A stretch of DNA of 64,000 nucleotides, from NCBI GenBank assembly GCA_051362555.1, contig CM120649.1, positions 7,688,001 to 7,752,000 on the forward strand, read 5' to 3'. The notes under the pieces are model-generated. The model was not told the DNA's origin and did not search any database. It saw only the letters and a list, made by a program, of their open reading frames with translations. Source of the stretch: Lingula anatina. Taxonomy: Eukaryota > Animalia > Brachiopoda. Both the position numbers and the translations under genes were made by a program. How positions within the stretch are numbered: position 1 is the first letter of the stretch; every line of letters begins with the position of its first letter. Shown here piece after piece: positions 2,741-39,696 of the stretch.

Positions 2741-3626
2741 GACCCCAGTAGACCATTACTTTAAATAAAAGAAACCTTGATATCTACACTAGTATAAAAT
2801 AGTTAATAAAGCAATACAAACGATGCATTATTTACTGGCTCCACACTAAGTATGCTGGCTACACCTAAAACAATTTTCATTTGGATGATATAGGAATGTA
2901 TAAGGGACACTTGTTATGATTTTATACAGATATCTCATCTAGAATACGAGGAAAGGTTTATCACAATTCATGCGATACATTTGTTTCTGCACTCAGCTAT
3001 TCCCTATGAAATGAAATGTAACAAATATATTTCAAAAATTTTGCTCAAAGTTAACACATAAAATATTTGCAATGGATACACTTGGATTTTGGTAAACAAT
3101 GCACGTTTATACCGCAACATAAAACTAAGACAGCGCCAAGTCATCTCGACTTACAAGACATATGGATTAACTAAACAGCCAAACTTCAACAATGGAGTAC
3201 GGTTTTAAATAGTCTATCAAATTAAACTTTACTTTTTATCTGTTATATTTTAAATTGCGCTTGCAAAATGCTATCTGTACACAGATTACAAATGAAGCAG
3301 TTTCAATGCGATAACATGCAATGTACATAAAGTACTATAGGCCTACATGTTCTTGTAGAATTAAGATACTTTGTCAGACATTTCTCCTATAGCATGCTAA
3401 CTATTTATCATAAATGATATATTTGCCCCTTACGCGGTATATTTGCCCCTTTCTAGAGAACACAAACAGCCGAAAACCTATAAAGAACGGTGATAAACAC
3501 CCATGGATGCGTTGGGAAAATGGTTGTGACCAATATTCTCATATGAACTTGACGTTTGAGAAACATAAATGAAGCACACAGTCTATGAATAACTCGGCTT
3601 AAACCCCCTTGCATTAAATATAAGCT

Positions 3627-3683
<57 letters not shown>

Positions 3684-5130: not shown

Positions 5131-5330
5131 ATTGCCTTTATATCGTTGTCTCATACAGAAATAAAAATAGAACGGTTTTAGAAATGGTGTCATAAAAAGT
5201 GGATTACCGTTTAAGACACTTTGAAGTATTTGTTAAATGGTGAAATCAGTATACGTCCTGATAATCTCAAGATATGCTACGGAAAAAGGGAAAATCAGAT
5301 TATTGAGCAGAACTGTCTTCTTCTTTTGCT

Positions 5331-8300
5331 CTAATGACACTTTTTGGCTAAATCTTCCATAATATTGACTGTCCTTATGGTAGCGGGGTCTTTGGGACTA
5401 AGTATCTCCTCTCTCAGTGCAAGACATTTTTTGTGATAATCAAGTGACTCTTTATACTCGCCCATGTCATGCAGTGTGTTCCCGATGTTGTAGTAGGAGC
5501 CGGCAGTATCGGGGTGTTTGGGACCAAGTGTCTCCTCTCTCAGTGCAAGACATTTTTTGTGATAATCAAGTGACTCTTTATACTCGCCCATGGCATGCAG
5601 TGTGATACCGATGTTGTTGTAGGAGCTGGCGGTATCGGGGTGTTTGGGACCAAGTGTCTCCTCTCTCAGTGCAAGACATTTTTTGTGATAATCAAGTGAC
5701 TCTTTATACTCGCCCATGGCATGCAGTGTGATACCGATGTTGTTGTAGGAGCTGGCGGTATCGGGGTGTTTGGGACCAAGTATCTCCTCTCTCAGTGCAA
5801 GACATTTTTTGCAATAATCAAGTGACTCTTTATACTCGCCCATGGCATGCAGTGTGATACCGATGTTGATGTAGGAGCTGGCAGTATCAGGGTGTTTGGG
5901 ACCAAGTGTCTCCTCTCTCAGTGCAAGACATTTTTTGTGATAATCAAGTGACTCTTTACACTCACCCATTTTCTGCAGTGTGTTCCCGATGTTGGTGTAG
6001 GAGCTGGCGGTATCGGGGTGTTTGGGACCAAGTGTCTCCTCTTTCAGTGCAAGACATTTTTTGTGATAATCAAGTGACTCTTTATACTCGCCCATGGCAT
6101 GCAGTGTGATACCGATGTTGGTGTAGGAGCTGGCGGTATCGGGGTGTTTGGGACCAAGTGTCTCCTCTCTCAGTGCAAGACATTTTTTGTGATAATCAAG
6201 TGACTTTTTAAACTCACCCATGGCCTGCAGTACATTACCGATGTTGTTGTAGGAGTTGGCGGTATCAGGGTGCTCGAGACCAAGTATCTCCTCTGTCAAT
6301 GCAAGACATTTTTTGTGATAATAAAGTGACTTTTTTAACTCACCCATGGCCTGCAGAACAGTACCGATATTGTTATAGGAGGCGGTGGTATCTGGATGCT
6401 TGAGACCAAGTATCTCCTCTCTCAGTGCAAGACATTTTTTGTGATAATCAAGTGACTTTTTAAACTCACCCATGGCCTGCAGTACAGCACCGACATTGTT
6501 GTAGGAGCTGGCGGTACCGGGGTGCTTGGGACCAAGTATCTCATCTTTCAATGCAAGACATTTTTTGTGATAATCAAGTGACTCTTTAAACTCACCCATG
6601 GCCAGCAGTACATTACCGATATTGTTGTAGGAGCTGGAGGTATCAGGGTGTTTAGGTCCACGTATCTCCTTTTTCAATGCAAGACTTTTTTTGTGATAGT
6701 CAAGTGACTTTCTATACTCACCCATGGCCCGCAGTACAATACCGATATTGTTGTAGGATGTGGCGGTATCAGGGTGCTTGAGACCAAGTATCTCCTCTCT
6801 CAATGCAAGACATTTTTTGAGATAATCAAGTGACTGTTTATACTCACCCATGGCCCACAATACAGTACCGATATTATCGTAGGAGGTGGCGGTATCAGGG
6901 TGCTTGAGACCAAGTATCTCCTCTCTCAATGCAAGACATTTTTTGTAATAATCAAGTGACTCTCTATACTCACCCATGGCCTGCAGTACATTACCGATAT
7001 TGTTGTAGGATGTGGCGGTATCGGGGTGCTTGGGACCAACTATTTTCTCTCTCAATGCAAGACATTTTTTGAGATAATCAAGTGACTGTTTATACTCACC
7101 CATGGCCTGCAGTACAGTACCGATATTGTTGTAGGAGGCGGCGGTATCGGGGTGCTTGGGACCAACTATTTTCTCTCTCAATGCAAGACATTTTTTGAGA
7201 TAATCAAGTGACTGTTTATACTCACCCATGGCCCGCAATACAGTACCGATATTGTCGTAGGAGGCGGCGGTATTGGGGTGCTTGGGACCAAGTATCTCCT
7301 CTCTCAATGCAAGACATTTTTTGTGATAATCAAGTGACTCTTTATACTGACCCATGGCCTGCAGTATATTACCCATATTGTTGTAGGAGGTTGCAGTATC
7401 GGGGTGCTTGGGACCAACTATTTCCTCTTTCAATGCAAGACTTTTTTTGTGATAATCAAGTGTCTCTTTATACTGACCCATGACCTGCAGTACAGCACCG
7501 ATATTGTTGTAGGAGTTGGCGATATCGGGGTGCTTGGGACCAAGTATCTCCTCTCTCAATGAAAGACATTTTTTGTGATAATCAAGTGACTCATTATACT
7601 TACCCATGGCCTGCAGTACATTACCGATATTGTCGTAGGAGTTGGCGGTATCGGGGTGCTTGGGATCAAGTATCTCCTCTTTCAATGCAAGACATTTTTT
7701 GTGATAATCAAGTGACTTTTTAAACTCACCCATGGCCTGCAGTACATTACCGATATTGTCGTAGAGGCCGGCGGTATCGGGGTGTTTGGGGCCAAGTATC
7801 TCCTCTTTCAGTGCAAGACTTTTTATGAGATAATCAAGTGACTCGTTAAACTCACCTATTTCGTGCAGTAAAATACCGATATTGTTGTAGGAACTGGCGA
7901 CATCGGGGTGTTTGGGACCTAGAATTTTAACCTTTTCATGTGACACCGATTTGTAAATATGTAAAGCATCCTTGTAGAGACAAATGCGACAAAAAGTCTC
8001 TGCAATCATTGCTAATTTATCTACACTTTCCAATCTTTCAGATGCATCTTGAGCTTCTATACTTTTAGTTAATAAAGCAGCAGTTTGTTTGATATGTGGT
8101 AACATCAAGGATAAATGATTTGCATCGGTGGCATTAAAATACTCCATTTTAAACCCTTTGAGAGTTTCTATATAATGACTGCAAAAAGCATTTTGGATAT
8201 CAAAAATATAATCGCCATATTCCTGGGCATTGTATTCTGCATATTCCCTTAGTAAAGGGTGGACATCATAGATGTTACTATCTGTACTAATGAGCGATTT

Positions 8301-9472
8301 ATTGACAAGAAGGTCTAGGATATGTTCACAATGATTTTGATCTAACCCTAAAATAACAGAGACTTCTTCCAGGTTAAAAGCAACAGGGAATATATGTAGT
8401 GCAACAAACACCTTTCTCGCCTCCGTTTCTAATGTTTTATAAGAAATATCAAAGCAAGTTTTGATTTCTTCTGGCATGCTGGGAATGGAAAGAGTGGGTA
8501 GCATCTTCTGAGTTTTAAATGTCTCTAATACTGCTTCTGTTTCTTTTTTGTCAAGCAGTGCAGCTAGCAATTTTAATGCAAGGGGGTTATAGCCGCACAT
8601 TTCTGCCATTTCATCTAAGTTCGCTAACTCGCTGTCGGTGGGACTGGTTGATTTTCGTTCCCATAGGACGTCACGCGAGGAGCTTTTATCAAGTTTATCA
8701 ATGTCTAACACAACTATGTTATGTGTTGTGAAATCAAACCTTTCACGACTGGCGCATAACAAACTGATATGTTTTGTTGAATCCATTACATCCTTCAAAA
8801 AATCACTAAACTCCTTCCTATTTGAACTTAAAAAAGACTCATTATTATCTAGGATAAATAGGGTATCAGTAGTCAAACTAGACAAAGTCTGTTTGAATAT
8901 GTTTTGGTAATCAGAGTATAAGTCTTTCAAATGACGTGTTGGGTGATAATGTTGGACAAGCGATAACTTGACAGAATTAAGATCTGTCACTTGTCTCATA
9001 TCAATGTACAGCACGTTTTGCATGCTTTGTCCGACCTTAACTGCTATGCTGGTCTTACCGATACCCCCCATCCCGGTCAGGAGAATGAGTGGAGCTTTAT
9101 CCCTGATATGTTGCTGTATCGTGGTAATGATGTCATCACGACCCTTCAGATCTGTGTTTATTCTTGGTAATGTCGTGGACAGCAGCTGGCAAGGGGTTTC
9201 TGAAAAGATTGCTGAACAATTTAATTTCTAAAAATAAGAAATTGTGAATGCATTTTAATATTGGGCCACCATATTTTTGAACACTATATTTTTGAACACT
9301 ATGTCTGAAAATATACAGCTGGATTGTCAGTGACATGTTAACAATAGTGTTATTAGAATATGAAATTAGTATCACTGCAATTGGTTTTGTCTGTGCTTTT
9401 ATACATGTGACTCAACGCTTTTATATTTATATTTATATCCTCTGTTTTTGTTTTTGTGTACCTTCGCCTGTA

Positions 9473-9512
<40 letters not shown>

Positions 9513-10154
9513 AACGCACACTTGCATTCATATTTTAATCAGTTCTGGTTGTAAAGATGTGAAATATTAAATATTGTGCGGAAATCTACCAGAAGCATCC
9601 AGTGGCTGGATCAGCACCTTGTCGTAGTCATCGCTAGTGTATAATGTTGACAGAGACAGCAGAATAGTTTTCAGATCAGCGAACTGGGTCTTGAAGTCTG
9701 CATCTGAGAGACCTCCTTTATTGTGAGCGAGTTCATTGCGGTATCCCTTCACCCTGCCGATGTTGGCCTCAGTTGAATTGTCCGTGGCAGGAGGTTTGTT
9801 CCATTTTGCATGAGGATTCAAGTTTGTGATATTTCTCAATAAGATTACAGCCAGGGTTATATCCAAGTCCTGCAATGTCACAGGAGGGGCGGGGCTCCCA
9901 GGGGGATATAGAATATCTATTTGGCTGGGGTTCAAAATGTTCCTTCTTTTTAGTCTGAGTAATGAGTGTTTGACTGTTTGGTCATTTAGGACATCAGATA
10001 TCACGCCATTATTTGATGGTCCATACAGCCCTGGATATTGTACTTGTAACTGGTTACTGAGAACATCTTGAAGTACTAGGTTTCCATGATCCAGTAATAG
10101 GTCCATGCGGAAACGGTTTTCTTTCTTCTTTCGTGCAATATTAACGCTGGTCAT
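5331..10154 (-). CDS. NLR-like gene copy 1: HEPN (DZIP3-type) + NB-ARC/STAND NTPase + 20 TPR repeats; two coding exons (10154-9590, 9199-5331), about 1477 aa
   Basis: Phase-1 GT-AG intron 9589-9200 joins ...LDAS to ETPCQLLSTTLPRINTDLKGRD in frame; spliced length 4434 nt is divisible by 3. HEPN signature LYPP..DLDITL..LLRNI..W..P..YRNELAH; Walker A GMGGIGKT; Walker B LFILDN; sensor CASRE; CGYNPLAL (GxP); YDVHPLLREYA (MHD-like); 42-aa KHPDTAxSYxNIGxxL repeats. Confidence 0.9.
5394..7913 (-). repeat. Coding tandem array of 20 x 126-bp TPR (42-aa, TPR_12/nephrocystin-3-like) units
   Basis: 20 consecutive [K/E]HP units counted in the translation; 20 x 126 nt = 2520 nt matches the coordinates exactly. 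Confidence 0.95.
9590..10154 (-). CDS. HEPN_DZIP3-like RNase effector exon of NLR-like copy 1
   Basis: RNELAH (Rx4H) at 9740-9723; donor G|GTAGAT at 9590/9589; acceptor tttcag just before AAATG. Confidence 0.85.
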
Positions 10155-14051: not shown

Positions 14052-17000
14052 TTTATTTCTGTGTACAGAAATGGCGGCAACGCAAGATGGGTCCAACTTT
14101 ACCCACAATGCATTGCGCTCAATATCGAAAACGAGACGAATAATGCAAGTCGTATATGGCGTGCGTTGTGAACTCGCATCTTAGGGACACCTGACGTATC
14201 TCACACAGCGAGAATGCCTGGGAATAAAGGCCTCAGTTGCTGAATATGTCTCAGTAGCTGCATGTATGTGTGTAACTTTCATTAAATAATAAAGGATGAT
14301 ATTTGTATATTATATATATAAGATAGGGTGTTATTTCCACCAAGTAATGAGACTTGGGGGGGGGGGGGGGGTCGACGATGGAATATAGTGTGCTGATAAA
14401 TATAAATGCATAACCTACATACGCCTTACAATACTGGAAGGTGGGGGAATGAGAGACGTGCGTGTGCTAGCGTACGCTGGGTGATTCTGAAATATGGTTT
14501 TTATGTAAGAAAGAGTGCGAATTATCGCAACTACGTACGTAGGGGAGACCGGGGCTAGTTTGACCCCAGGGTAAGTTAGCCCCCAGTCAATTTATGAAAA
14601 AGTAACTACGAGGTAAATAAATTGGCCACATAGGTCTATTCTTGTAAAGTGACCGTAGCCTACATGTACAATGCTAAGGAAGTGTCGGACGTTAAAAAGT
14701 TTTACTTAAGTGATGAGTCCAAATAAACGATTTATATACCTAAAAGTAAATTTGCTTAAGAGATTTAAAAATCTATTTTCATAGGCTTTTTATCGAATAT
14801 AATATTTGTATAGGGCATCAAACTGAAGCTCATTGTTTCAAGTTTCACAGCGATGTATCATCGTTGTTCATTCTAGCACTATAAATGGCTGTCATCTTTT
14901 AAAATAAAAATTGTACACCCGGAGCTAGTTAGCCCCCTTGACTCGGGCAAGTTGGGCCTATCATATTACCCACAATCCTTTGCGCACAACAGAGCTAGAG
15001 ACCATGCATTGTTGAAACAAACTCAATGGTTTAAAACTGAATTCGTTACTTTCTTTTAAAACGAAAATTTATTATTCGTTTTCATTCATTAAGAACCTGC
15101 TTATTACCATTATTAATTTACTTTTAATTAAAATAAAACAAATTGATAGATATTTTGGTCCTTGTCCCCCTACAACGAGACGTACGGAAACCTCAATTAA
15201 TCTGACTCATTTGAACTATTTATTCATCAAGGACTCTCTAAAATCAATTTGATAAATCAGAATCGTTCCATAGAGCAGAGGTCGTTGCTCCAGAGGATTG
15301 TTTCTTATGGTACGAATCCGATCTTATGTCTGAGTGGGTCGGGAATCCGGAATGCTGGCCCGGACCTGCATGCACCGGCAGGACTGGTTGATACACTGAG
15401 ATTTTTAGTAAACAGCCCCAGCTATCAGAACAGACTCTCAAAAGAATATATGTTGGCGGGACTGCTCTTAAAATCGTTTTAATCACTGCTTTTATTGTAT
15501 TATTTTACACATATATTTATTTTTTACTCATCTTTTAAGGTTGTTTTAGTAATAAATAAATATATTTTGAGACTCCTTTTTATCAATCAATTTTTCTAGG
15601 AAACTGCTCTTAAATGTAACATCCATCTGCTTGAATTTCCCCCAAACCTTGAATTTGCTCAAATTATCTTGTACCAGGAAGGATATTTAATATTGCTTTA
15701 TTTATCCTGCATAACTTTTCTCGAACACGGTTCATTTACACCACTTTTGGATACTGAAAGAGTGAAATGGTAGCGACTTCTTTATTTCCCCAGGCTGTAA
15801 AAACGTTCACAATGTAGATCGACTCTTCTCGTAAAGATATCGTTTTAGATTCGAGATATGATCCACTCAGTCACAGCGTCCTCGTTTCCTGTAACTTAAC
15901 CATAGTATAAAACTTAAATAACTTTTCGTGATCTCACACCGTCACCATCACACAGCCGTATTGAAGTTAAAATATGTCCGAAAATATACCTCGCACCGTA
16001 TTGCAAAACAGCTGGTATATGAATAAAAACGGCATAGTCTCTTAAGTTGTTCAACCTTGCATATTAAAATCACTTAAGCCACAAACTTATTACAAACGTT
16101 TAAATCACGCCAAACGTTTGGACGTGCCATAAGCCACTTTCCTCAGTCTCAGAGTGACACAGGTAGCATTGTGTCATTAGCCGAGGGTACTTGGAGCTAT
16201 CCCCCCCCCCCCCCCCCTTAGAACTGCGGCTACTGTGGTTAGGGGTTATAATACAGGTGTGCGGGAGAATGTATCTGCTTTCGTCTCTATTTAGATTGTT
16301 TAAACCTTTTCACCCTAGAATACCTGACAATCAATACTGCCCGCCGCCGTCTAGAGCGCAAGGACGGCATTGTGCCATCTAGCACCTCTAACACAATCAG
16401 CCTGGGAGAAGTATAGTGGATGGCACGTGCTGTGTGAAATAGGACCTCCAGGCTTACAATTACAATTAATCTGTTTACAATGAAGATTTTTTTAAAATCT
16501 GCAATTAATTTTTAATATTTCTATTACCCATTTGTATCAATCTATTTATTCGTTCATCCTTCTGTCCATTAACATTAAAGATAGTGTCAGTCAATTTAGT
16601 GCCAAAAAATGTAAAAAGAATTTGACTGCGTCATTTTTGAAGTGATTTATCAAATGCCAAAATAAATTCGCCATTGTCCCCATTACTTTGATTTAAAGTT
16701 CGATCGGTCTATAAAATAGCCTCTATGATGTGTTACTTTTCCGAGCCTCCCGGTTTCTTTTCAAATACACATTTTTACAACTTATTCACCAGCAAGACAT
16801 CTAGTGTCAATCAGTGAAAACGTTCCTTTTGATACAATAAATTTGAAACCTTTTGTTTAAAATAATTTGATGATAATTACAAACTGTTCGTTACTGACAG
16901 ATAGTCACCATCAGTTTGGCAATGAACTTGAACGATACATAAAAATATATTTTTATTTTCATATTTGACAACTTAAAAAAACACCTATTCCACAGTCACA

Positions 17001-17208
17001 GCGGCAGTGGAAAAATTTACCATTAAGATAATTAATTTACCATTAAGATAATTAATCTGCACAGAAGTATGATACACATACTATCACAGCTGTATTTTAT
17101 ACATGATATATATGATATATTAATCATACATGTAACTAGTTATATACTCTAGGAAATCAAAATCATGCTTTAGGAAAATGAAGACAACGCCTAATTTTCA
17201 AGGTAAAT

Positions 17209-17260
<52 letters not shown>

Positions 17261-17783
17261 AATGACACATCATTACATTTAGTCCCCCAACATACTAGTA
17301 TATATTATAACCTTTTTAAGACACGTCATCTATATAATAAAAACACATGTCATAATGAACTGACTTTAGATAATCAAGACATCTACTAGTGAAAACGCAA
17401 CAAAGCTAAGACACCACTACGCCATGACTTTAAATCAATACTTTAGAAGAACTACAGTATAGCCTTACTGTACTACAAATGTAGTAGTATGAAAATCGTT
17501 TATAAAAAAGACTATGACCATTCAACCGACTGATCATTAACTTGATCTAGACAATAAGACATAGCCATACTTTAGGAAAATGAAGACAACACATAATCAT
17601 CGGTACGATATCACACAAAAAATTGAAATATTATGTTACGAATGTATAGTATATCCAAATCTTCCTTGAAATTAACACGTTAAATATTTGCAATGGACAA
17701 CAACACTCACACTCCATAACGTCAAATATATAAACATAATATACTGAATTGTGATACCTAATACACATTTATAACAAAGCTAA

Positions 17784-18001
17784 GGGCGCATTCCCATAGA
17801 TTTAGACCTATCCCCGTGGGGAGTCTCACTAGATTACTGTCAGATAATCCGGCTTAAATGCACCGTCCCGCCAACAACATGCACAAGCTGTAACGGGGTA
17901 ATTAGCTTCCGTGCGCAATCAGCTGACTGCAATTTAGCGTGAACCCCCCCGGGAGTTAGGTCGATCTAGTAAGATCGATCTAAATCTCTGGGAATGTCCT
18001 C
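17784..18001. mobile_element. MITE with TAA target-site duplication (PIF/Harbinger-like)
   Basis: taa|gggcgcattcccatagatttaga ... tctaaatctctgggaatgtcctc|taa. Confidence 0.7.
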
Positions 18002-19365
18002 TAAGACACCTGCAAGACATATTCTTAACTTAGAAAAGCCTAGAAGCAGTACAATACAGTCTTACTACAACAAAGGGGTTTTAAATCGTTCATTAATAGA
18101 AATGTTAGGCCTACATGAACTTGTTACGTTATAAACAGTCTCTGCCAAGTGACTGGAGATAAAACACTATTGAGATGAGATGACATGGAATGCAAACTGC
18201 AACATATAACAATACTTGCAGATTTAATGCTTTGTCCGATATATGCCCAAAGGCCTATTTATCGTAATTCACGTAATACACGTTAATTTTGTCGCTAAGT
18301 GAATCTCATACAGTCGTTTACTAGCAAAACCTCTAAAGAACTGTGAAAAAACTTCATGGATTCTTTGTCAAAATGATTGTGACCATTATACTCATATTTA
18401 ATTGACTTTTGATAAATATTAAAGAAATTTGTAATACAAGAATCACTCGGCTTTAACCCACATGCATTAATATAAGTGTGTGTGTGTGTGTGTTTGTGTG
18501 TGTACGCATGCGGATGTGTCTGTATCTAGACGTGGCCTTTTTGCATGTACATTTTGTCATACACGAACACATTTTAGAATACTTTACAGCCATATCTTAG
18601 AAAAGAAAAGAGGGGTAAGTTATTTCATAAGATTAACAGGGAAAGTAAATAATACATAATATATCACTGGATACACAGTATATTCCTGTAAATAGCGGAT
18701 ATACAGTACCCTGGGAAAGGTGGATGCTTGTATTGGATTATGAAATTCCAGATGAAGTTAAACAAATATAAACATACATAGGACAATGAGTGCCTGAATA
18801 TGGCTTTAAAAAGAATACGTAAAGAGTATAATGAAGTCTGAATGAAATGTACTTTTAATCCTACAAGAGGGAACTATGAATGTCTGGATAAACGGTGCGG
18901 TAGAGAATGACGACTTAAATACAAATTTATAGATCTACGACTGCTTGGAGAAGACATATTTTTCTACATTGCACTGATTTTATTTTGGACTCCTTACAAT
19001 GTCTACGATAATGAATTTGTCAACAAAATTGCCCAGAAATATGGAGTAGAACGTGGTAATGATTGGAGACGAGTAAAAGTACACTAAATGCTATGTGCTG
19101 CGTAGCGTTCATACAGTACTTTTACTACAGTATTTTACAACATGGACAAACTTATAACCTTGCCTGCAACACTATGGGAACCCCACTACAGAATAGTCTG
19201 CCTGAATAGATAGCACACAAGATACCGCCTGTATCACATGAAAAAAATCATGAAAGGAATTCTAGAAAGCAGAACACCCTTTGAGGCTAATAATGAGACA
19301 TTTGATTCTAAGGGTTCCAGAACCGAAAATGGAAAGTATCCCGAGTCAAGTGAAGGCCAAGTTGA

Positions 19366-22340
19366 CTAAACAATTGAACAAAATGGTACACGATCTCTAT
19401 GATAATATTTTACCAAAAATTCAATAACACTGATTGTTCTGACAGTATCATGGTGTTTGGGACCAAGGACCTCCTCTGTCACTGCAAGGCATTTATTGTA
19501 ATAATCAAGTGCCTCTTTATATTTACCCATATACTATACAGTGCATGGCCAATGTTGTTGTAGGAGTCTGCTGTATTAGGGTGTTTATGACCGAGTATCA
19601 CCTTTCTTAATGCAAGACTTTTATTGTGATAAACAAGTGACTCTTTATACTCACCCATGTCTTGCAGCACAAGACCTATATTATTGTAAGAACTGGCGGT
19701 ATCGGGGTGTTTGGGACCAAGTATCTCCTCTCTCAATGCAAGACATTTTTTGTGATAATCAAGTGCCTTTTTATAATAGCCCAAGGCCCGCAGAACATTA
19801 CCGATATTATTGTAAGAGCTGGCGGTATCGGGGTGTTTGGGACCAAGTATCTCCTCTCTCAATGCAAGACATTTTTTGTGATAATCAAGTGCCTTTTTAT
19901 AATAGCCCAAGGCCTGCAGTACAATTCCGATATTGTTGTAGGAGCTGGCGGTATCGGGGTGTTTGGGACCAAGTATCTCCTCTCTCAATGCAAGGCATTT
20001 TTTGCAATAATCAAGTGACTCTTTATACTCACCCATGGCCAGCAGTACACTACCGATATTGTTGTAGAAGGCAGCGGTATCAGGGTGCTTGAGACCAAGT
20101 ATCTCCTCTCTCAATGCAAGACATTTTTTGTGATAATCAAGTGACTTTTCTAACTCACCCATGGCCTGCAGTACATTACCGATATTGTCGTAGGAGACGG
20201 CGGTATCGGGGTGTTTGGGGCCAAGTATCTCCTCTCTCCATGCAAGGCATTTTTTGTAATAATCAAGTGACTCTTTATACTTACCCATGGCCTGAAGTAT
20301 ATTACCCATATTGTTGTAGGAGGTTGCAGTATCGGGGTGCTTGGGACCAAGTATCTCCTCTGTCAATGCAAGACATTTTTTGTGATAATCAAGTGACTCT
20401 TTATACTGACCCATGGCCTGCAGTATATTACCCATATTGTTGTAGGAGGTTGCAGTATCGGGGTGCTTGGGACCAACTGTTTCCTCTTTCAATGCAAGAC
20501 TTTTTTTGTGATAATCAAGTGACTCATTATACTTACCCATGGCCTGCAGCACATTACCGATATTGTTGCAGGAGTTGGCGATATCGGGGTGCTTGGGATC
20601 AAGAATCTCCTCTTTCAATGCAAGACATTTTTTGTGATAATCAAGTGACTTTTTAAACTCACCCATGGCCTGCAGTACATTACCGATATTGTCGTAGGAG
20701 CCGGCGGTATCGGGGTGTTTGGGGCCAAGTATCTCCTCTCTCAATGCAAGACTTTTTATGAGATAATCAAGTGACTCGTTAAACTCACCTATTTCGTGCA
20801 GAAAAATACCGATATTGTTGTAGGAACTGGCGACATCGGGGTGTTTGGTACCTAGAATTTTAACCTGTTCATGTGACACCGATTTGTAAATATGTAAAGC
20901 ATCCTTGTAGAGACAAATGCCATAAAAAGTCTCTGCAATCATTGCTAATTTATCTACACTTTCCAATCTTTCAGATGCATCTTGAGCTTCTATACTTTTA
21001 GTTAATAAAGCAGCAGTTTGTTTGATATGTGGTAACATCACGGATAAATGATTTGCATCGGTAGCATTAAAATACTCCATTTTAAAGCCTTTGAGAGTTT
21101 CTATATAATGACTGCAAAAAGCATTTTGGATATCAAAAATATAATTGTCATATTCCTGGGCATTGTATTCTGCATATTCCCTTAGTAAGGGGTGGACATC
21201 ATAGATGTTACTATCTGTACTAATGAGCGATTTATTGACAAGGTCTAGGATATGTTCACAATGATTTTGATCTAACCCTAAAATAACAGAGACTTCTTCC
21301 AGGTTAAAAGCAACAGGGAATATATGTAGTGCAACAAACACCTTTCTCGCCTCCGTTTTTAATGTTTTATAAGAAATTTCAAAGCAAGTTTTGATTTCTT
21401 CTGGCATGCTGGGAATGGAAAGAGTGGGTAGCATCTTCTGAGTTTTAAATGTCTCTAATACTGCTTCTGTTTGTTTTTTGTCAAGCAGTGCAGCTAGCAA
21501 TTTTAATGCAAGGGGGTTATAGCCGCACATTTCTGCCATTTCATCTAAGTTCGCTAACTCGCTGTCGGTGGGACTGGTTGATTTTCGTTCCCATAGGACG
21601 TCACGCGAGGAGCTTTTATCAAGTTTATCAATGTCTAACACAACTATGTTATGTGTTGTGAAATCAAACCTTTCACGACTGGCGCATAACAAACTGATAT
21701 GTTTTGTTGAATCCATTACATCCTTCAAAAAATCACTAAACTCCTTCCTATTTGAACTTAAAAAAGACTCGTTATTATCTAGGATAAATAGGGTATCAGT
21801 AGTCAAACTAGACAAAGTCTGTTTGAATATGTTTTGGTAATCAGAGTATAAGTCTTTCAAATGACGTGTTGGGTGATAATGGTGGACAAGCGATAACTTG
21901 ACAGAATTAAGATCTGTCACTTGTTTCATATCAATGTACAGCACGTTTTGCATGCTTTGTCCGACCTTAACTGCTATACTGGTCTTACCGATACCCCCCA
22001 TCCCGGTCAGGAGAATGAGGGGAACTTTATCTCTGATATGTTGGAGTATTGTGGTAATGATGCCATCACGACCCTTCAGATCTGTGTTTGTTCTAGGTAA
22101 CATCGTGGAGAGCAGCTGACAAGGGGTTTCTGAAAAGGTTTCTGAACATAAAAATCTAAAAACAGGAAACTGTTAACACATTTTTCACCTTGTGGTGGCC
22201 ATATTTAACACTTTTATATATGAAAATATACAGCTGGAGTGTCAGAATCTTTTAACATTAGAATGTTATAAGAATATGGAATCATTATCTCTGCCATTGT
22301 TTTTGCCTGTGCTTTTATAAATGTGACTCAACGGTGTGTG

Positions 22341-22373
<33 letters not shown>

Positions 22374-23021
22374 TTGTGTGTGTGTTTTTATTAGCTCTGG
22401 TTGTATTGATGTGAAATATTGAATATTTTGCAGAAATCTACCTGAAGCGTCCAACGGCTGAATCAGCAAATTGTCGTAGTCGTCACTAGTATTCGATGTC
22501 GACAGAGACCGCAGAATAGCTTTCAGATCATCGAACTGGGTCTTGAAGTCTGCGTCTGAGAGACCTCCTGTTCCGTGAGCGTGCTTATTGCGGTATCCCT
22601 TCACCCTGCCGATTTTGGCCTCTGTAGAAGTGTCCGTGTCTGGAGCATTGTCCCATTTTGCATGAGGATTCAAGTTTGTGATATTTCTTAATAAGATTAC
22701 AGTCAGGGTTATATCCAAGTCGTGCAATGTCACAGGAGGGGCAGGGTTCCCAGGGGGATAGAGGATATCCATTTGACTTCGATTCAGAATGTTTCTTCTC
22801 TTCACTCCCCTCGTCTTTAAACTGAGTAATGTATGTTTCACATTTTTGTCATTTAGGACATCAGATATCACGTCATTACTTGATGGCCCATACAGCCCTG
22901 GATATTGTGCTTGTAACTGGTTACTGAGAACACCCCGAAGTACTAGGGTAGCACGTTCCAGTAGCAGGTCCATGCGGAAACGGTTTTCCTTCTCTTTTCT
23001 AGGAATTTCCCCAGTGGCCAT
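19366..23021 (-). CDS. NLR-like gene copy 2: HEPN + NB-ARC + 10 TPR repeats plus a frameshifted 11th; exons 23021-22442 and 22129-19479, about 1076 aa as sequenced (ancestral stop at 19366)
   Basis: Same phase-1 intron (22441-22130); RNKHAH at 22592-22575; NTPase nearly identical to copy 1; an extra 2 nt near 19531 shifts repeat 11 out of frame. Confidence 0.88.
19459..20846 (-). repeat. Coding tandem array of about 11 x 126-bp TPR units (copy 2)
   Basis: 10 full units at 20846-19587 plus an 11th interrupted by a +2 frameshift. Confidence 0.93.
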
Positions 23022-23726: not shown

Positions 23727-24296
23727 AAAATTATATAAGTTTAGGACATTCATCTCATATGTATATGTCAAGGTACATAACAATGGCATATATGTTTAAT
23801 GTGTCAGCGTGTACTGTGGGCGATAAAGGTTTATAATTTTCCTGTTTTAAAAGTCTTATACTCTATTTGATAAATATAAGAAGGGATTAATACAAAAAAA
23901 GCATTCACCTCTATGGGTATTCTAGCACAATTGTTTTTATATGATCTTATTTCCGCATATTTGTTCCATTATCATATTGCCAACATTTGCGTTTCAAATA
24001 TACTATACAAATACCGGCTTAGCAGGCTCGTGAAAGTTAATGATCCATGCAAATTCACTGCTTTTAAGTAAGTGAAGAAAAATCAGTCATGGAGCAAACA
24101 ACACTTGCTGGCTTCAGCAGGGAAAGTTGATTCTATCCAAAGAGAAAATGATGGAGCAATGTATGCAGAGCATAAGCGTAATAAGTAGAAAACATTGAAA
24201 AACAAACATTGCTTGATGAGTTTTCTAGAATTTAACAAGGCAGCAAAGCTGTCAAATGTACAGACAAAAAAAAAAAACAGAAAATAAAGATGCAAA

Positions 24297-24985
24297 TAAG
24301 TGAAAAATTAAATTTTCACAAAAAACTGTTAAATTGCCAGAAAAATTTACCAAACAGACTGCATTGCCTATTGAAGCTGTATGTTAGACCCATGTTTCTT
24401 TCCTGTAAGTTTGAGAACAGTAAGTGACATGATTTCCCTTAAATGGTCATCATAGGAGCAGTGCCCAAAATAGGGGTTTCTTCAAATTTTGATGCAACAT
24501 TACATAATGTTGAACAGCATGATGACAATCAAATGTTATTAATAAAATATTAGTAACATGGACATTCAGAAAATGTGACAAGCAAAAGTCTTCAGGATCA
24601 TGGAACTTAAAAGTCACACCTTGTACATGCCAATATGTGAAAAATTAAATTTTCACAAAAAACTGTTAAACTGCCAAAAAAAAGAAAAAAAAAAAAAAAA
24701 CCAAACAGACTGCATTGCCTACTGAAGCTGTATTTTAGTTCCAGGTTTCTTTCCTGTAAGTTTGAGAACAGTAAGTGACATGATTTTCCTTAAATGGTCA
24801 TCATGGAAGCAGTGCCCAAAAAAGGGGTTTCTTCAAATTTTGATGCAATATTACATAATGTTTAACAGCTTAATGACCATCAATTTTTAATTATAAAATA
24901 TTTGTATCACAGATATTCAGAAAATGTGACTAGCAAAGGTCTTCAGGCCCATGGAACTTCAAAGTCACACCTTGAAAATGCCAAA
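24297..24985. repeat. About 340-bp direct duplication inside the Helentron
   Basis: gtgaaaaattaaattttcacaaaaaactgttaaa at about 24300 and about 24637, collinear thereafter. Confidence 0.85.
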
Positions 24986-25399
24986 ATGTAAACAAGACAG
25001 CACTGTTCTGAAATGGGTTTCTTTCCATTTTTAACACTTTTTTAACATAAAACAAAATAAACATTTTACTGCCATTTTTATATGACCAACTAAGAAAATT
25101 GATGAGATGGGAAAACTATCAATAGAACAGTGTTAAATGTCCAATTTCCTCCATTCTGAGATTCTGAACATAGTGGATGATTGAATCTGACAAACTGCAA
25201 TGATATGAGTTTATTTCCATTTTTGACACTTTATTACACAATACATGATAACAAGTTTACCATGTTTTTTACATAATCAACTAACAATGTTGTAAAGATG
25301 CAGGAAATATCAAACAAACACTTTTAGGCATCTTATTAGTTAAATAATGAGACTGTTAACATGCCTAATAATTGAATCTGAAGACATGTGAAAAAACAG

Positions 25400-26170
25400 T
25401 ATAACTTCTAAAATAATGGCCCGATTATGCTGATTTTCGAACTCATCCTGCGTTTTAGTAAGATTGACCACTCCTGTGAGTATAATTACAATTGGCCAAT
25501 CTGTTTTTCTTATATTGTGTTATCAGTGTTGCATTTATATTGAAAATAGTGAAAAAACAGCATAAATTCCCTAAAAATGGCCCAATCATGCTGATTTTCA
25601 AACTTGACCTGCGTATTATGAATATTCATCAGTTCTGTAAGTTTCAAGTCAAAAGGTAAAATGGTTTTCTACTTATCGTGTTATCGGTGCTGCATATATG
25701 CTGAAAAAAGTGAAAAAACAGCATAAATTCCCTTAAAGTGACCCAATCATGCTGATTTTCGAACTCGACCTGCGTATTATGAATATTCATCAGTTCTGTA
25801 AGTTTCAAGTCAAAAGGTAAAATGGTTTTCCACTTATCGTGTTATCGGTGCTGCATATATGCTGAAAAAAGTGAAAAAACAGCATAAATTCCCTTAAAGT
25901 GACCCAATAATGCTGATTTTCGAACTTGACCTGCGTATTATGAATATTCATCAGTTCTGTAAGTTTCAAGTCAAAAGGTAAAATGGTTTTCCACTTATCG
26001 TGTTATCGGTGCTGCATATATGCTGAAAAAAGTGAAAAAACAGCATAAATTCCCTAAAAGTGACCCGATCATGCTGATTTTCGAACTTGACCTGCGTATT
26101 ATGAATATTCATCAGTTCTGCAAGTTTCAAGTCAAAAGGTAAAATGGTTTTCCACTTATCGTGTTATCGG
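25400..26170. repeat. 161-bp satellite, about 4.8 units, inside the Helentron
   Basis: cataaatt recurs at 25561, 25722, 25883 and 26044 (period 161). Confidence 0.9.
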
Positions 26171-26410
26171 TAAAAGTGCACGGCGACGACGGCGACGACG
26201 GCGCCGACGGCGACGACGGCGACGACAGACGCAGATGATGGCTATATGTACAGACACATCTGTGTCTGTACATAAAAAGTTGAAATCCAAAACCTACTAC
26301 TCCACCATTTAAACAGAAGTGTTCTCTCTATTCAGATCAATGCAATTCAATAGCGTGTGTGTCATACATGTACAACTGGTATCAATTTGATTGTGAATAA
26401 TTTCAATTGG

Positions 26411-31700: not shown

Positions 31701-32044
31701 TGTGACGATGTAGTGTGTTAGATGAGATCATTTTATATTGCTACCGGTAGATGTCTCTGTAAGTAAAGTGTTGTCCGGTGTGCAAGTTTGAATCTCTCCC
31801 GTGATTGGTAACCTAAAGGTAAAACTGTTCACTGTATAGTTGGTTCTGATTGGTAAACGTGTACTATCTGAACTTGTATATAAGGTGTAACGTGAAATAA
31901 ATCGCCCTCTTTGGCCTCTTTGCTCTTAGCGGCTGTCTTTTGCTCTTCTCTTGAAGCTTTTTGGCTTTGTGTTTAACTCTGAGATACCAGTAAGTACATT
32001 GTTATTTGTACCTTCATAAGGCACTCGGCCGCGAAGGCGTAACA
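31701..32044 (+). repeat. 5' LTR
   Basis: TGTGACG...CGTAACA; ATTGG boxes, TATATAA at 31877, AATAAA at 31896, GTAAGT at 31990. Confidence 0.97.
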
Positions 32045-32046
32045 AT

Positions 32047-32064
32047 TGGCGCAGTCGACAGGAT
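32047..32064 (+). promoter_or_regulatory. Primer-binding site, complementary to a tRNA-Ser 3' end
   Basis: TGGCGCAGTCGACAGGAT; the reverse complement ATCCTGTCGACTGCGCCA resembles eukaryotic tRNA-Ser 3' ends. Confidence 0.8.
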
Positions 32065-32981
32065 AGAGTTTGTGTAGCTTACGACAGGATAGAGTTTGTG
32101 TTGCTTATTAATTGAAAGGATACAATTTGTGTAGCATATGTTGTTAAATTGACAGAATTCAATTTGTGTAGCTAACGTTGTCAGTTTACGGGATAGAATT
32201 TGTGTAGCTTATGTAGTTAGCAGATATAATTAGTAGTTATTAGTGATATTGGAATTTTTGAAAAGCTTTGTGTATGGCTGAGTGAGAGTTGGAAAGATAG
32301 TGACACGTGTTAGTCGGGACTTGTTGCAAGACGCGAACTAGTCGGAACATATTGCAGTGATATTTCATTTTTATTGTTGTTTGATACTCGCGGCAATTTA
32401 GTAAATATTGTCAAAGTAGCATTCATTTTAGTACTTTAGAGATATTTTGTATTAATTTTCTGTTGTGATACTACAATTGCAGAGACATTGTGAACCACGT
32501 GTAGTGAGTAGTAGTCGGACAGACCACGTGTAATTACAGGCCCGTGCGCACAGAGCCTTATGTTGTAATTAGAATACAGAACATAATTTAGTGAGTTTAT
32601 TTACAAAGAAAAGCATTTATTTAAAATAAAGGTTTCAAATTTGTGTTTTTCACTGACTTGCTGAATGAAGGAGTGAGTGTGAATTGTTTATTGTATATTT
32701 TTATCAATATTGCAATAGCATATATTGATAGAGTACTATTCTACCTTGTTCGTCTGTGTTGAAAGTGTTTCATCATAGGTGTACATGTGAGTAGGTTGAA
32801 TAGTGTGAGAAATTTGTTTGTATTTACTGTGAAGTTTAGTAGTGGCTTTTTTGCTGAAACTTTCTTCAAACAGTAAAGTGTGGTAGTGGTGAAAGTATTT
32901 TATTGTGTAGTTTTTGTGGCACAGCTGCATTGCTATTATCAATAAAATTGTGTAATAGGTTGTGGGAAACTAGAAGTGAAA

Positions 32982-34946
32982 ATGGCGTCGGGTAGTGTAG
33001 AAAGTAGTGTTGTGTTGAATGTGCAGACAGCGTCTGAGACAGAATTGAAAAATTTGAAAGGAATTGGTCCAGTGAAAGCTCATAGATTGGTGTCTTTGAG
33101 AAATCAAAAAGGAAAATTGCTGTTGAGTGATTTGGAAGAAATTACTGGTATTAGTGTAGCAGAATGGCAGAAATGGGAAAAGAAGGGTAATGTGATTCTG
33201 GGTGTAATGGAAGAAAAAGATGAAGGTTCAAAAGTTGGAGATGAGAAAAAGGAAGAGAGTGTGAATTGGGAAGAAAAGTATAGAAAGTTGATGGAGCGAG
33301 TGAAGGTACAAAATGAAATGATATCAAATCTTCGAGATGAGGTTGAAGAAGCGGGAGAAAAGATGGAATTTTTATCAAGTGAATTGGAAATAAATGATGC
33401 TAAAGTGAAAAAGTTGGAAAATGAAAAGAGTGAATGGGAAAAAGAGAAATATGCTTTGGAAAATGAAAAGTATAGTTTGGAAAATGAGAAGTGTGATTTG
33501 AAAAATGAAAATGATATGTTGAAAGAAAGAAATGTGAAAATTCAGAGTGAGTTGGGAAAAACTAAACAAGTGTTGATGAAAAAAGAAATGGAAATGGAAG
33601 AAGAGTGTAGAGAGTATTCCACAAAAGAAATGATGTTACATGCTCAGGTTGAAACACAGAATGAATTGTTGAGAAAACGAGTAGAAAGTTTGCAGAAGTG
33701 TGAAATTGAAAAAATGGATTTGAAATTGCAATTGGATGAAATGACAGCACGTCATAATCATTTGCAAACTCAGTATGAAAGAATGCATTTACAGCATGAT
33801 TTAGAAAAAATCCCAAGACCAACTCCTAGAGATATTAAAAGTAGTAGACCCACACCTGCACCTAGAAGTAGTAAAAAGAAAAGTTTGGAAACCCCTGTGA
33901 AAAAACCAATACTGAAACTAGCAGAGAGTGAAAGTGATAGCGAAAGTGAAAGTGAATCTGAATGTGAACAGAAAAGAGTTCCTTTAGTTGAAAGAGAAAA
34001 AGGACCTGTTCATAAAATGCCTAGTTTTAGTGGGAATGGAAGAGAAAACTGGGAAGCTTTTGTATTTAAGTTTGAAGGAATGGCAGAAAGATATGGATGG
34101 AATGATAAAAGGAAAACTAGCAGAATGATTGAATGTTTGGAAGATAGAGCTCTTGAGTATGCGGTGGAGTTTGGAAATTGCAAATATAAACGTTTGAAAG
34201 AAGTGATGTCAAAACGTTTTAGTATGAAAGAGTCTGCTTCATCTGCACGCAGAGCACTTCAATCAATGAGGCAGGGTGAAAGTGAATCTTTGCAAGATTT
34301 TGCTCATCGTGTGTTCATGGCATCTAGAGAGGGATATACAGAAGGTGGTGAAGGAATAGCTGTGGATTCATTTTTAAGAGGGTGTCGTGACAAAGAATCT
34401 GCAAAATTGGCTATGGATAAAGAGCCTAAAGATTTATTTGAAGCGTTAGAGTTTGTGAAAGTTGCAAACAATAACTTCAAAGCAGTGTATGGTACAGGTG
34501 GAAGAAATGTGCATATTAGACAAGTTGGAATGTCTGATCAGAGTGTGGAGAATGGAAGTGGAAATCAATTACTCTACAACATGCAAAGAACCATGTCTGC
34601 AATGTGTGATCAGATGAAAAGAATGAATGACGCATGGGTGTCACCGTCGAATTCTCAGAGAAATTCTGGTAGAATGGTAAAGTCGCCCCAGAATGGAAAC
34701 ATAAATCAAAGTAGAGGGGGTCCACCACAATGTTTTAAATGTGGAGAAAGAGGTCATGTTCAAAGGGATTGTAAGAATGAAAATGTAGAACATCCACCTA
34801 ATCCCAATGTTAGTAAAAATGCCAGCCCAAGTTCTATTTTGATTTGTAATAAATGTGGACAAAGAGGTCACATTCAAACAAATTGCCCTCAAAATAGAGA
34901 AATGCCAAAGAATCCTCCTCCCGGTGCAAGAAATTCGGTAAACTAG
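32982..34946 (+). CDS. gag: Gag with N-terminal helix-hairpin-helix, coiled coil, capsid-like region and two CCHC knuckles
   Basis: LNVQTASETELKNLKGIGPVKA (HhH); FSGNGRENWEAF..F...W; RQGESESLQDFAHRV; CFKCGERGHVQRDC and CNKCGQRGHIQTNC. Confidence 0.92.
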   Translation: MASGSVESSVVLNVQTASETELKNLKGIGPVKAHRLVSLRNQKGKLLLSDLEEITGISVAEWQKWEKKGNVILGVMEEKDEGSKVGDEKKEESVNWEEKYRKLMERVKVQNEMISNLRDEVEEAGEKMEFLSSELEINDAKVKKLENEKSEWEKEKYALENEKYSLENEKCDLKNENDMLKERNVKIQSELGKTKQVLMKKEMEMEEECREYSTKEMMLHAQVETQNELLRKRVESLQKCEIEKMDLKLQLDEMTARHNHLQTQYERMHLQHDLEKIPRPTPRDIKSSRPTPAPRSSKKKSLETPVKKPILKLAESESDSESESESECEQKRVPLVEREKGPVHKMPSFSGNGRENWEAFVFKFEGMAERYGWNDKRKTSRMIECLEDRALEYAVEFGNCKYKRLKEVMSKRFSMKESASSARRALQSMRQGESESLQDFAHRVFMASREGYTEGGEGIAVDSFLRGCRDKESAKLAMDKEPKDLFEALEFVKVANNNFKAVYGTGGRNVHIRQVGMSDQSVENGSGNQLLYNMQRTMSAMCDQMKRMNDAWVSPSNSQRNSGRMVKSPQNGNINQSRGGPPQCFKCGERGHVQRDCKNENVEHPPNPNVSKNASPSSILICNKCGQRGHIQTNCPQNREMPKNPPPGARNSVN

Positions 34947-34957
34947 AACGGGACGAA

Positions 34958-37900
34958 TTGACCGACCGGATTTCGGATCCCTTACTTCATGTTGAAGGTC
35001 GGATTATGGATAGTGGAAATGTGAAAATGATGAATGTTGGAGAGTTAGTAGGAGAAAATTTTGTGATTCCTGTTAGTGTAGGTGGTGTGAAAACATTAGC
35101 AGTTGTGGATACGGCAGCTCAATTTACTATCGTAAATAAAAGATTTTATAGTAAATTGCAGGGTGTGCCTGAGTTTTGTGAGACTCTGAAATTAATGCTT
35201 GCTGGAAAAAATGCATTTATGATGGGTCATAGAGTAGAAAATTTGAGTATTGAGATAGATGGGATAGAATATAAGGAAAATGTGTATGTTGCAGATTTGC
35301 AAGAAGGAATTGATATGTTGTTGGGATTGAAGTTTTTGAAGGAGAGAAATTGTGTGGTGAATTTAGTTGATCAAACATTGATCATTGGAGAAAAATGTGT
35401 GCAGGGAAGCATAGAAGTTGAAGGTGACTCTGATTTGAGTAAAGTGAATGGTGAGACAGAAGCTAAAAGTGATGAGAAATGTATTGATGAAATGGAGAGA
35501 GAAGTTGAACATTGTGAAAATATGGTGAGAACGAAAAAGAGAATAGTAGTTCCTCCATTGACGGTGATGAAAATTTCTGTTTGTGCAGATTATGAGTTAG
35601 AGAAAAAGAAAGAGTATGTGATAGAACCTTGTGTTGATAGACAAGTGTTGGTATCTTGTGCATTAGTTAAAGGTGATGATGTTGTTCCTATAGAGATAGT
35701 GAATGATGGAGAAAGAAATGCTGTTTTGAAAGCAGGTAGTGTGTTAGGTGTTATTAAGGAAGTTGAGACAGTTGATTCTGAAGTGAGATGTGAAGATGTA
35801 GATGGAAAAGCTAGGGTGTCTGCTGTGAATAAAGTTGAAATGAAGTTGAATATAGATGAAAATGTGGATAAAGAAGTGATGAGAAGTTTGAAAAGAGATT
35901 TGCCTGAACATTTGCAAGATTTATTTGAAAGATCAAGTGAGGAGCTTGATTCAAATGAAATGGTTGCATTGTGTGAAACTTTGAGAGATTATGAAGATGT
36001 ATTTGCAAAGCATGATCTTGATTTAGGGTGCATGAAAGGTGTTAAACATACTATTAACACTGGTAGTGCAGCTCCTGTGAAACAGAAATTGCGTAGAACT
36101 CCATTGGGAATGGAAGGAGAAGAGAGAAAGATGCTTGAAAAGTTGTTAGCTTCTGATGTTATTCAGCCATCAAATTCTGAATGGGCATCCCCACCAGTAT
36201 TGATAAGAAAGAAAGATGGAAGTGTTAGATGGTGTGTGGATTACAGGGAATTAAATAAGAAAACTATCAAAGATTCTTATCCTATTCCAAACATTGGTGA
36301 TTGTTTAGATTGTCTGGCTGGAAATCAGTTTTTGAGTTTGATTGATATGGCTCAAGGATATTTTCAAATTGAAATTGATGAGAAAGACAGAAATAAAACT
36401 GCTTTTATCACCAGGTATGGTCTGTATGAGCATAAGAGAATGGCTATGGGACTTACCAATTCTCCTGCAAGTTTTTCAAGAGCAATGCAGTTAGTATTGA
36501 GAGGTTTGACTTGGGAGAAAGTGTTAGTGTATCTGGATGATATCACAGTGTTGGGAAAGAATTTTGAAGATCATCTTAAGAATTTGAAAGAGGTTTTGGA
36601 GAGATTGCGTTCTTACAACTTGAAGTTAAAGCCTAAGAAATGTTTTCTTTTCCAAACAAAGTGTGAATTCTTAGGAAAGTCGATTAGTAGAGAAGGTGTT
36701 GGTATAACTGAGAGTAAGATTGATTGTGTTAGAAAGTGGCCAGTACCTACAAACAAAAAGGAAGTTGAAACATTCCTTGGTTTCATCAATTATCATAGAG
36801 ATCATATTCCTCAATTTGCTGAGAAAACTGCTTGTTTGTATGAGTTGACAGGGAATAAAAGTGTTTTCAATTGGTCAGATGAACATCAAATAGCATTTGA
36901 AAGTTTAAAACAAGAGTTAACAACTGCCCCTTGTTTAGCCTTTCCTTTGTCTGAAGGTGAATTTATACTTGATACAGATGCATCATATTCATGTATAGGA
37001 GCAGAACTTTCACAGATACAACATGGTGAAGAGAAGGTTATTGCTTATGGAAGTAAAATTATGTCACCTATACAGCGGCGTTATTGTACAACTAGAAAAG
37101 AGCTCTTGGCTGTTGTAAACTTCTGTAGACAATATAGACATTATTTGTTGGGAAGAAAGTTCAGAATCCGAACAGATCATCATAGTTTAGTGTGGTTGTT
37201 AGGATTTAAAAACCCAGATGGTCAGTTAGCAAGATGGTTAGAAGAATTATCTCAGTATAATTTTACCATTGAACATAGACCAGGAAAGAAGCATGGAAAT
37301 GCAGATGCATTATCAAGAATACCTTTAGTTATGAAAGTGTGTGATTGTTATAAAGTTGGAGTGAAATTGAGTGACTTACCCTGTGGAGGATGTCATTATT
37401 GTCAGAGAGTACATAAAAATTGGTCAAGGTTTGAGACTGATGTGAATGATGTAATTCCTCTGGGAAATAAGAAATCAGATGACAATGTAGTTGAATCGAA
37501 TGCAGTTGGTGATATGAAGAATGAAACAAATTGTGAGAAATTGAGTTCAGTTTTGATGTGTCAGAGGGCTGATACAAATGATAAAACTGACAAGAATGAA
37601 AGAGATGAATTATGCAATTGGTTGAAAGGATATGACTTGAAAAAATTGCAGAGAAAAGATGCAGATTTGAAAATAATCATAGGTTGGTTAGAGAATGGTG
37701 AACCTAAAGAATCAGAGTTGTATTTGTGTAGTATGGCAGTAAAAGGATTGTGGAATTGCAAAGAGCAATTGATTCTTTTGAATGATGTGTTATATTACAA
37801 ATGGGAAAAGAGAGAGGATAGAAATTTGTGTTTAATAGTACCAAAAGATTTGGTCAACGAAGTTTTATTTTTCTGTCATGATTCAAAAACAGCTGGTCAT

Positions 37901-39662: not shown

Positions 39663-39696
<34 letters not shown>

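Follow-up and report, generated by a model that had tools for sequence, protein, structure and literature searches.

The stretch of Lingula anatina DNA analysed here (the window, 64 kb) contains two related genes on the minus strand, arranged in tandem about 13 kb apart. Both copies have the same architecture, in which a HEPN head encoded by exon 1 precedes an NB-ARC-type STAND ATPase and an array of 42-residue TPRs encoded by exon 2. The exons are joined at GT..AG splice sites (9590/9199 in copy 1, 22442/22129 in copy 2), and the proteins predicted from them are 1477 and 1076 residues long, respectively. In each copy the ATPase and the TPR array form one stop-free open frame, in line with an earlier reading of the sequence alone (the sequence-only reading), which had placed each array in a single intron-free exon. 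The repeat units are designated A1 to A20 in copy 1 and B1 to B11 in copy 2 (Table 1); their number and order come from one assembly.

Table 1. Positions within the window of the features of the two genes, with the evidence for each
Feature	Position	Strand	Evidence or remark
Copy 1 exon 1, DZIP3-like HEPN, R-x4-H motif RNELAH	9590..10154	-	PF18738 120 bits, cut-off 27
Copy 1 exon 2, STAND ATPase	7914..9199	-	near-identical to copy 2 from about codon 60
Copy 1 TPR array, units A1-A20	5394..7913	-	20 exact 126-bp units
Copy 1 capping helix, TAG at 5331-5333, basic stretch, CaaX-like CSII-stop	5295..5393	-	
Copy 2 exon 1, DZIP3/hRUL138-like HEPN, R-x4-H motif RNKHAH	22442..23021	-	PF18738 108 bits, cut-off 27; GT donor
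Copy 2 intron, GT..AG, with a CA microsatellite inside	22130..22441	-	splice context; L. anatina models join the same ends
Copy 2 exon 2, STAND ATPase, winged helix, helical linker	20847..22129	-	NB-ARC profile, motifs, predicted model
Copy 2 TPR array, units B1-B10, 126 bp / 42 aa, in frame	19587..20846	-	
Unit B3, A3/A4 mosaic	20469..20594	-	register shift between unit positions 74 and 93
Units B4 and B5, both A5-related	20217..20468	-	1 and 6 nt differences from A5
Units B8-B9, copy-2-specific pair, ALGYYKKALD	19713..19964	-	6 differences, 4 private bases common to both
Unit B11, 128 bp, frameshifted	19459..19586	-	2 extra bases near 19536; stop 19479-19481
Copy 2 capping helix and CaaX-like CSIV-stop	19366..19458	-	out of frame in the window allele
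Copy 2 downstream flank, patches 73-83% like the copy 1 flank (1361-3650)	16239..18503	.	steady offset of about 14.8 kb

Both heads belong to the DZIP3/hRUL138-like HEPN group, as judged from PF18738 scores above the cut-off and the presence of the R-x4-H motif; the RNase activity of the domain is putative. The P-loop, Walker B and MHD-like motifs of the ATPase are kept in both copies (in copy 2, P-loop GMGGIGKT, Walker B LFILDNNE, and YDVHP), and a GxP motif is seen in YNPL. The NB-ARC profile (PF00931) scored 30.8 bits against a cut-off of 23.5, with a match over a partial stretch of the ATPase. A predicted model of the core with four TPR units gave a pLDDT of 84 and a pTM of 0.68. In a fold search, its best match was the STAND-TPR protein 6mfv (E = 3e-15), followed by kinesin-light-chain TPRs, Apaf-1 and Avs3; plant NRC/Roq1 were matched as well, and the model combines an NBD-HD1-winged-helix fold with a repeat sensor. 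A protein search with the ATPase part returned 47 matches, the 11 best of which were from Lingula anatina (85% and 82% identity at best), while the remaining 36 were weak (E 7e-12 or worse) and carried mostly prokaryotic names. A search for shorter relatives added two further L. anatina proteins and three weak matches.

The prokaryotic STAND-TPR proteins (archaeal 6mfv, antiviral Avs3) match the model in fold at no more than 16-17% identity, and their sensors, unlike those of the window genes, are not arrays of near-identical units. The Avs logic is that of a nuclease head, an ATPase and a TPR sensor. An N-terminal HEPN domain with R-x4-H on a STAND ATPase is shared with the DZIP3-like HEPN-NACHT proteins of bivalves and anthozoans (PMC9646362, PMC8260672). 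HEPN-STAND genes are expanded in pearl oyster and anthozoans, where they are clustered and variable in copy number, some having TPR tails (PMC9646362, PMC8260672), and the RNase activity of HEPN is likewise treated as putative in PMC9646362. The ATPase of those proteins is of the NACHT type, whereas that of the window genes is of the NB-ARC type, and unit-level TPR shuffling is not described in the portions of these two reports drawn on here. NB-ARC-TPR genes also exist in placozoans (PMC6321704).

Expression of the family was seen in RNA run X17, in which 26 reads fell on the ATPase exon, five at 95-99% identity, 21 at 90-95% and none at ≥99%. Three of these leave at the predicted acceptor (22133) into sequence resembling the end of the HEPN exon. 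The gene family is therefore transcribed and spliced as predicted, the X17 reads being those of family members, with none at ≥99% to these two loci. Runs X11 and X14 gave no reads on the ATPase exon and are uninformative.

Comparison of the repeat units at the nucleotide level bore out every unit-level statement of the sequence-only reading, with one qualification. The count of 20 versus 11 units holds in DNA, but in protein copy 2 has 10 whole units, B11 being frameshifted; none of the unit statistics includes B11. Altogether, 30 of the 31 units keep the frame without a stop. Mean unit identity to the consensus of the same copy was 0.850 in copy 1 and 0.843 in copy 2 (0.857 and 0.854 without unit 1), which reaches, as a borderline case and by a method other than T-REKS, the level used for Podospora-type repeats (repeat identity near 85% across 100 aa or more). 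Units 1 and 2, which had been said to correspond between the copies, differ at 3 of 126 nt in each pair (A1/B1 and A2/B2), against 9-22 nt differences to the nearest other unit. B4 and B5, described as a duplication of the fifth unit of copy 1, both derive from A5 (Table 1), and the three have 2 private bases in common. The distal blocks are copy-specific as claimed, A15-A20 being marked by 2 private shared bases and B8-B9 by their own, and A15-A20 form a recent block. Within it, A18 and A19 (5520-5771), noted earlier as identical in protein, are identical in DNA too.

Unit B3 had been described as a mosaic of A3 and A4, and at the 13 sites at which these two differ it reads 4,4,3,3,3,3,3,3,4,4,4,4,4. 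It has derived bases in common with both A3 and A4, and 3 bases of its own relative to them; the chance of three or fewer runs is 0.008, calculated for this one triplet. Counted per 42 nt, the mismatches between the copies are 0,1,2,2,0,1,3,1 in register 0 up to mid-B3, and 1,0,0,1 in register +1 past mid-B3, and an exact tract of 116 nt spans the B3/B4 = A4/A5 boundary. This slip in register is the footprint of one whole-unit gain or loss, the crossover having fallen within unit positions 74-93; a loss in copy 2 and a gain in copy 1 fit it equally. B3 requires more than one event, since its first two informative sites follow A4.

The recombination analysis of the 126-bp units that the sequence-only reading had called for gave a PHI-type p of 0.001 over the whole array (30 whole units). 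Copy 1 by itself gave 0.0025, the 27 inner units (from which A1, B1 and B10 are also excluded) gave 0.0005, and copy 2 by itself gave 0.15, which is not significant. Recombination-free simulations on the fitted tree (n = 100) gave none at p ≤ 0.01 and 3 at p ≤ 0.05. Triplet mosaic tests over 24,360 triplets had a best p of about 0.00025, and none survived correction. Within copy 1 (A2-A20), array distance was correlated with sequence distance (Mantel rho 0.50, p = 0.0002), neighbours being more alike. Repeat shuffling is thus found within the genes and between them, and the register shift, the exact duplicate, the Mantel correlation and the PHI result bear out the proposal of unequal crossover and conversion among units. 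The compared sequences make in-register unit exchange and conversion between the paralogues evident.

Exchange reaches past the array into the ATPase core, a point absent from the sequence-only reading. Synonymous divergence between the copies drops along the gene, from 0.297 in the HEPN exon to 0.183 over the initial 60 codons of exon 2 and 0.018 over the 367 codons that follow. There are 39 synonymous differences in the 187-codon HEPN exon versus 4 in the 367 core codons (about 39/131 versus 4/228 synonymous sites, p = 4e-15); over all nucleotides, the HEPN exons differ at 83/561 nt and the core at 16 nt over its 367 codons (1.5%). Trees of eight proteins differed accordingly between the domains, with copy 1 joining the L. 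anatina protein P0001 in the HEPN tree (99/97) and copy 2 in the STAND tree (100/100). The similar patches in the two downstream flanks, lying at a steady offset (Table 1), look like the trace of an old tandem duplication. Divergent HEPN exons and patchy flanks beside a near-identical core show that this duplication was followed by recent conversion of the core together with the first units. The genes thus exchanged the ATPase core and units 1-5 long after they were duplicated, with the consequence that two different HEPN heads now stand on nearly the same core.

An assembly artefact, in which the unit numbers, the A18/A19 pair or the mosaic are mis-joins or two alleles have been assembled in tandem, was weighed against this reading. 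There are exact repeats of 150 nt inside copy 1 and of 116 nt shared by the two copies, short-read assemblies of such arrays are described as unreliable (PMC12222747), and the 1.5% divergence of the core lies within the allelic range of the flank in other runs. The divergence of the HEPN exons and the flanks at 73-83% patchy likeness are, however, too large for alleles. All units except A18/A19 are distinct, and a mis-join would not create the 3 bases that B3 has of its own. Contigs of run X1, which may be the source sample and is not independent, match the copy 2 intron end and 3' flank without difference, and the locus is present in other samples. Contig depth in X1 was 140-181 on the core and 78-104 on copy-2-only stretches, which fits two loci and does not give a copy number. 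A contig from run X2 carries the 2-bp insertion of B11. On balance, we consider an artefact improbable. One X5 contig has, upstream of B11, a standard unit end in place of that of B10, a hint that alleles may differ in repeat number. At 18560-19400, runs X2, X5 and X6 contain a second 3'-flank haplotype, up to about 5% divergent and with indels, indicative of high heterozygosity.

The frameshift in B11 and the loss of the CaaX tail are two further points that the sequence-only reading did not contain. Run X2 has one contig with the window form of B11 and one without the 2 bases, and run X5 has one contig without them, at about half depth. These forms, seen in short contigs, indicate that the frameshift segregates among samples and did not arise as a slip of the assembly. 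Runs X1 (gap at 19540-19600) and X6 had no contig over the indel and are uninformative. Read in unit register, the copy 2 tail ends in CSIV-stop, while copy 1 has a TAG, a basic stretch and then CSII-stop, so that both window copies stop short of the CaaX tail. The CaaX motif is a prenylation signal. An intact tail was present in 1 of the 13 L. anatina proteins examined, P0002, which reads through the stretch equivalent to copy 1 to CSIV; several other L. anatina models end short of the tail. These sequences make it likely that the ancestor of the two proteins carried a prenylated CaaX tail at its end. The anchor has been lost repeatedly, the tail being cut by the TAG in copy 1 (5295-5333) and by the frameshift in copy 2. 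In run X5, a further 1-bp deletion was observed at 19415, in the same copy 2 tail (19366-19415).

Amino-acid variation among the units peaks at unit positions 7, 14, 17 and 10. Aligned to the TPR consensus, without a surface calculation, unit positions 7, 10, 14, 17 and 18 equal TPR positions 2, 5, 9, 12 and 13, which are named as the variable concave ligand face (PMC1261162). Entropy at these five positions exceeded that of the rest in both copies (p = 0.00001 and 0.016), in a test that was not blind, four of the five having first been noticed in the same data. As an independent check, eight L. anatina proteins in which four or more units could be scored were examined, and 7 of 8 had enrichment at the five positions (p ≤ 0.004), the exception being P0006 (p = 0.18); P0002 and P0009 have too few units and were outside this check.

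Distinct replacements seen out of those possible in the 27 units numbered 19/37 at the ligand-face positions and 44/243 elsewhere, and distinct synonymous changes 28/78. The scaffold is under purifying selection (p = 0.001), and the ligand face had more replacements than the outward helix-B positions (19/37 versus 9/49, p = 0.001). Over the 27 units, ligand-face replacements were not in significant excess over all synonymous changes (19/37 versus 28/78, p = 0.085) or over those of helix A (19/37 versus 15/30, p = 0.55). Leaving out CpG changes altered the selection result little. Positive selection at the variable codons, considered as a candidate explanation, was weakened once helix-A synonymous sites served as the control (p = 0.55). 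Positive selection at the ligand face is suggested by the pattern of replacements, and since there is no significant replacement excess over synonymous change, relaxed constraint would fit the variation equally. Helix A itself had more synonymous variation than helix B (15/30 versus 3/27, p = 0.002, a post hoc comparison), and CpG sites offer no explanation. This excess could reflect selection that keeps the binding helix from being homogenised, or just as well a few divergent blocks that were carried along. The sequence-only reading had spoken of new sensor surfaces; the location of the variation at TPR ligand-face positions agrees with this, the replacements are in no significant excess over synonymous change (p = 0.085 and 0.55), and new sensor surfaces are plausible.

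The same observations bear on neutral turnover of tandem repeats, in which head-to-tail units that are 80-100% alike are exchanged, gains and losses of whole units are tolerated, the ligand face varies for want of constraint, and the genes are perhaps decaying members of a birth-and-death family. It is favoured by the lack of a significant replacement excess at the variable positions, by the B11 frameshift and the second, 1-bp tail deletion in run X5, and by the premature stop ahead of the CaaX motif in copy 1. Turnover of the same kind is seen in non-coding arrays of the window, and relaxed purifying selection is described as common among paralogous repeats (PMC5120217). Neutral turnover fits less well with the in-frame, stop-free state of nearly all units, with purifying selection on the scaffold, with the higher variability of the ligand face than of outward helix-B positions, and with the intact HEPN and ATPase motifs. 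We regard it as doubtful, though as the strongest of the alternatives. The frameshift of the last copy 2 unit in the window allele also counts against the favoured reading given next.

Our favoured reading, which we hold with moderate confidence, is that these are tandem NLR-like genes whose arrays are rearranged by recombination between misaligned units, likely in the germ line and likely changing the ligand face of a predicted intracellular sensor. Because all units lie in one intron-free frame, change must come from in-register crossover, and unequal crossover and gene conversion in the germ line are the likely processes. Units that are 80-100% identical would mispair at meiosis, producing whole-unit gains, losses and mosaics in which the frame is kept, and each exchange would reshuffle the five residues that every helix A exposes. 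STAND proteins are opened at the ATPase by ligand binding, whereupon they oligomerise. By analogy with this family, a ligand on the TPR array would lead to ATPase opening or nucleotide exchange and hence to oligomerisation, upon which HEPN domains would pair and RNA would be cut. Ligand sensing and an immune role of the window genes are predictions by the same analogy. The recombination is real and its mechanism ordinary; the locus alone does not show a new mechanism.

That the arrays might also change somatically had been raised as a possibility. Under somatic diversification, arrays would be rearranged in immune cells in the manner of lamprey VLR cassettes, and the genome would hold the germ-line state or one product; somatic recombination has been put forward as a hypothesis for the NB-ARC-TPR genes of Ectocarpus (PMC3341825). 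VLR and V(D)J receptors start from an incomplete germ-line gene accompanied by cassettes or signals, and this arrangement is not found here within 64 kb. Both genes are complete without rearrangement, and all observations fit meiotic exchange. A search for orphan donor units within the 64 kb found none outside the two genes, all 31 of 31 nhmmer matches lying inside the two arrays, and a search for RAG-type recombination signals in the same 64 kb gave 0 matches. These results go against the somatic suggestion, which we rate as very improbable.

A close likeness to the window genes is seen in the NWD/HNWD genes of Podospora anserina and its sesB-like/NB-ARC/TPR gene Pa_2_10340, in which a STAND ATPase is likewise followed by high-identity 42-residue TPRs in an exon-like run. 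In the Podospora NLRs, the arrays of 42-residue TPRs are polymorphic in length and sites on the concave face are under selection (PMC4986451), and repeats are exchanged within and between genes (PMC4986451, PMC13449251). Solved Podospora repeats (4y6w/4y6c) match the window units by sequence and by fold. For Podospora, both positive selection and differences in length between alleles have been demonstrated, whereas the window genes offer variable ligand-face sites from one assembly. They further differ in the animal host, the HEPN head, the lack of RIP and the CaaX-like tail. In Ectocarpus, NB-ARC-TPR genes have 42-residue units, shuffling within and between clustered genes, and birth and death, as here (PMC3341825); each repeat is its own exon there, whereas the window arrays are in one intron-free frame.

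Repeat-shuffled NLR sensors have been studied in depth in fungi and suggested for brown algae, and in animals are treated only in broad surveys, one of which states that such NLRs occur in animals too (PMC13449251). In our literature search we did not find a unit-level account of such shuffling in brachiopods, although the paper on Lingula immune genes (Gerdol et al. 2018) may list the family. Within the literature on TPR repeat exchange, a brachiopod case was likewise not found; the taxon lists in Fig. 8 of PMC13449251 may include brachiopod proteins. The locus provides a clean case from an animal that can be followed unit by unit; its predicted effector is an RNase, and it is short enough to be amplified whole. 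It allows direct tests of polymorphism in repeat number, of selection at the binding face and of somatic diversification in an invertebrate. As a test locus it gains from two extras, conversion of the core under different HEPN heads and a CaaX tail that is lost or polymorphic.

A bolder reading takes these features together as a germ-line system of mix-and-match receptors. HEPN heads, cores and hypervariable TPRs would be exchanged among paralogues on an allelic time scale and selected for new ligands, with the CaaX anchor switched on and off by segregating changes at the array end. We consider this rather unlikely and put it forward tentatively. If it were true, animals would have in this system an equivalent of the hypervariable NLRs of fungi and of the nuclease-STAND defence of bacteria.

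Several other elements are present in the window. A Ty3/gypsy-type LTR retrotransposon occupies 31701-41439; its ends are 100% identical over 347 bp and it has an apparent 4-bp target duplication, which together suggest that it is very young. Its gag (32946-34946) begins with a helix-hairpin-helix domain, and its pol (34898-38911) overlaps gag in another frame. An extra 244-codon Cys/His-rich frame within it (39980-40714, plus strand) had no Pfam match. Just upstream of copy 2 is a 161-bp x 4 tandem array with 96% matches (25513-26171), and a duplicate at 337-bp spacing was found at 24290-24995. An SH3-domain exon (51228-51758, minus strand), which we take to belong to a MAGUK/Dlg-like gene, lies beside a 37-bp x 14.5 tandem array (50713-51264). 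Adjoining copy 1, a coding exon of the Sulfotransferase family (Sulfotransfer_2) was observed at 81-1034 on the plus strand.
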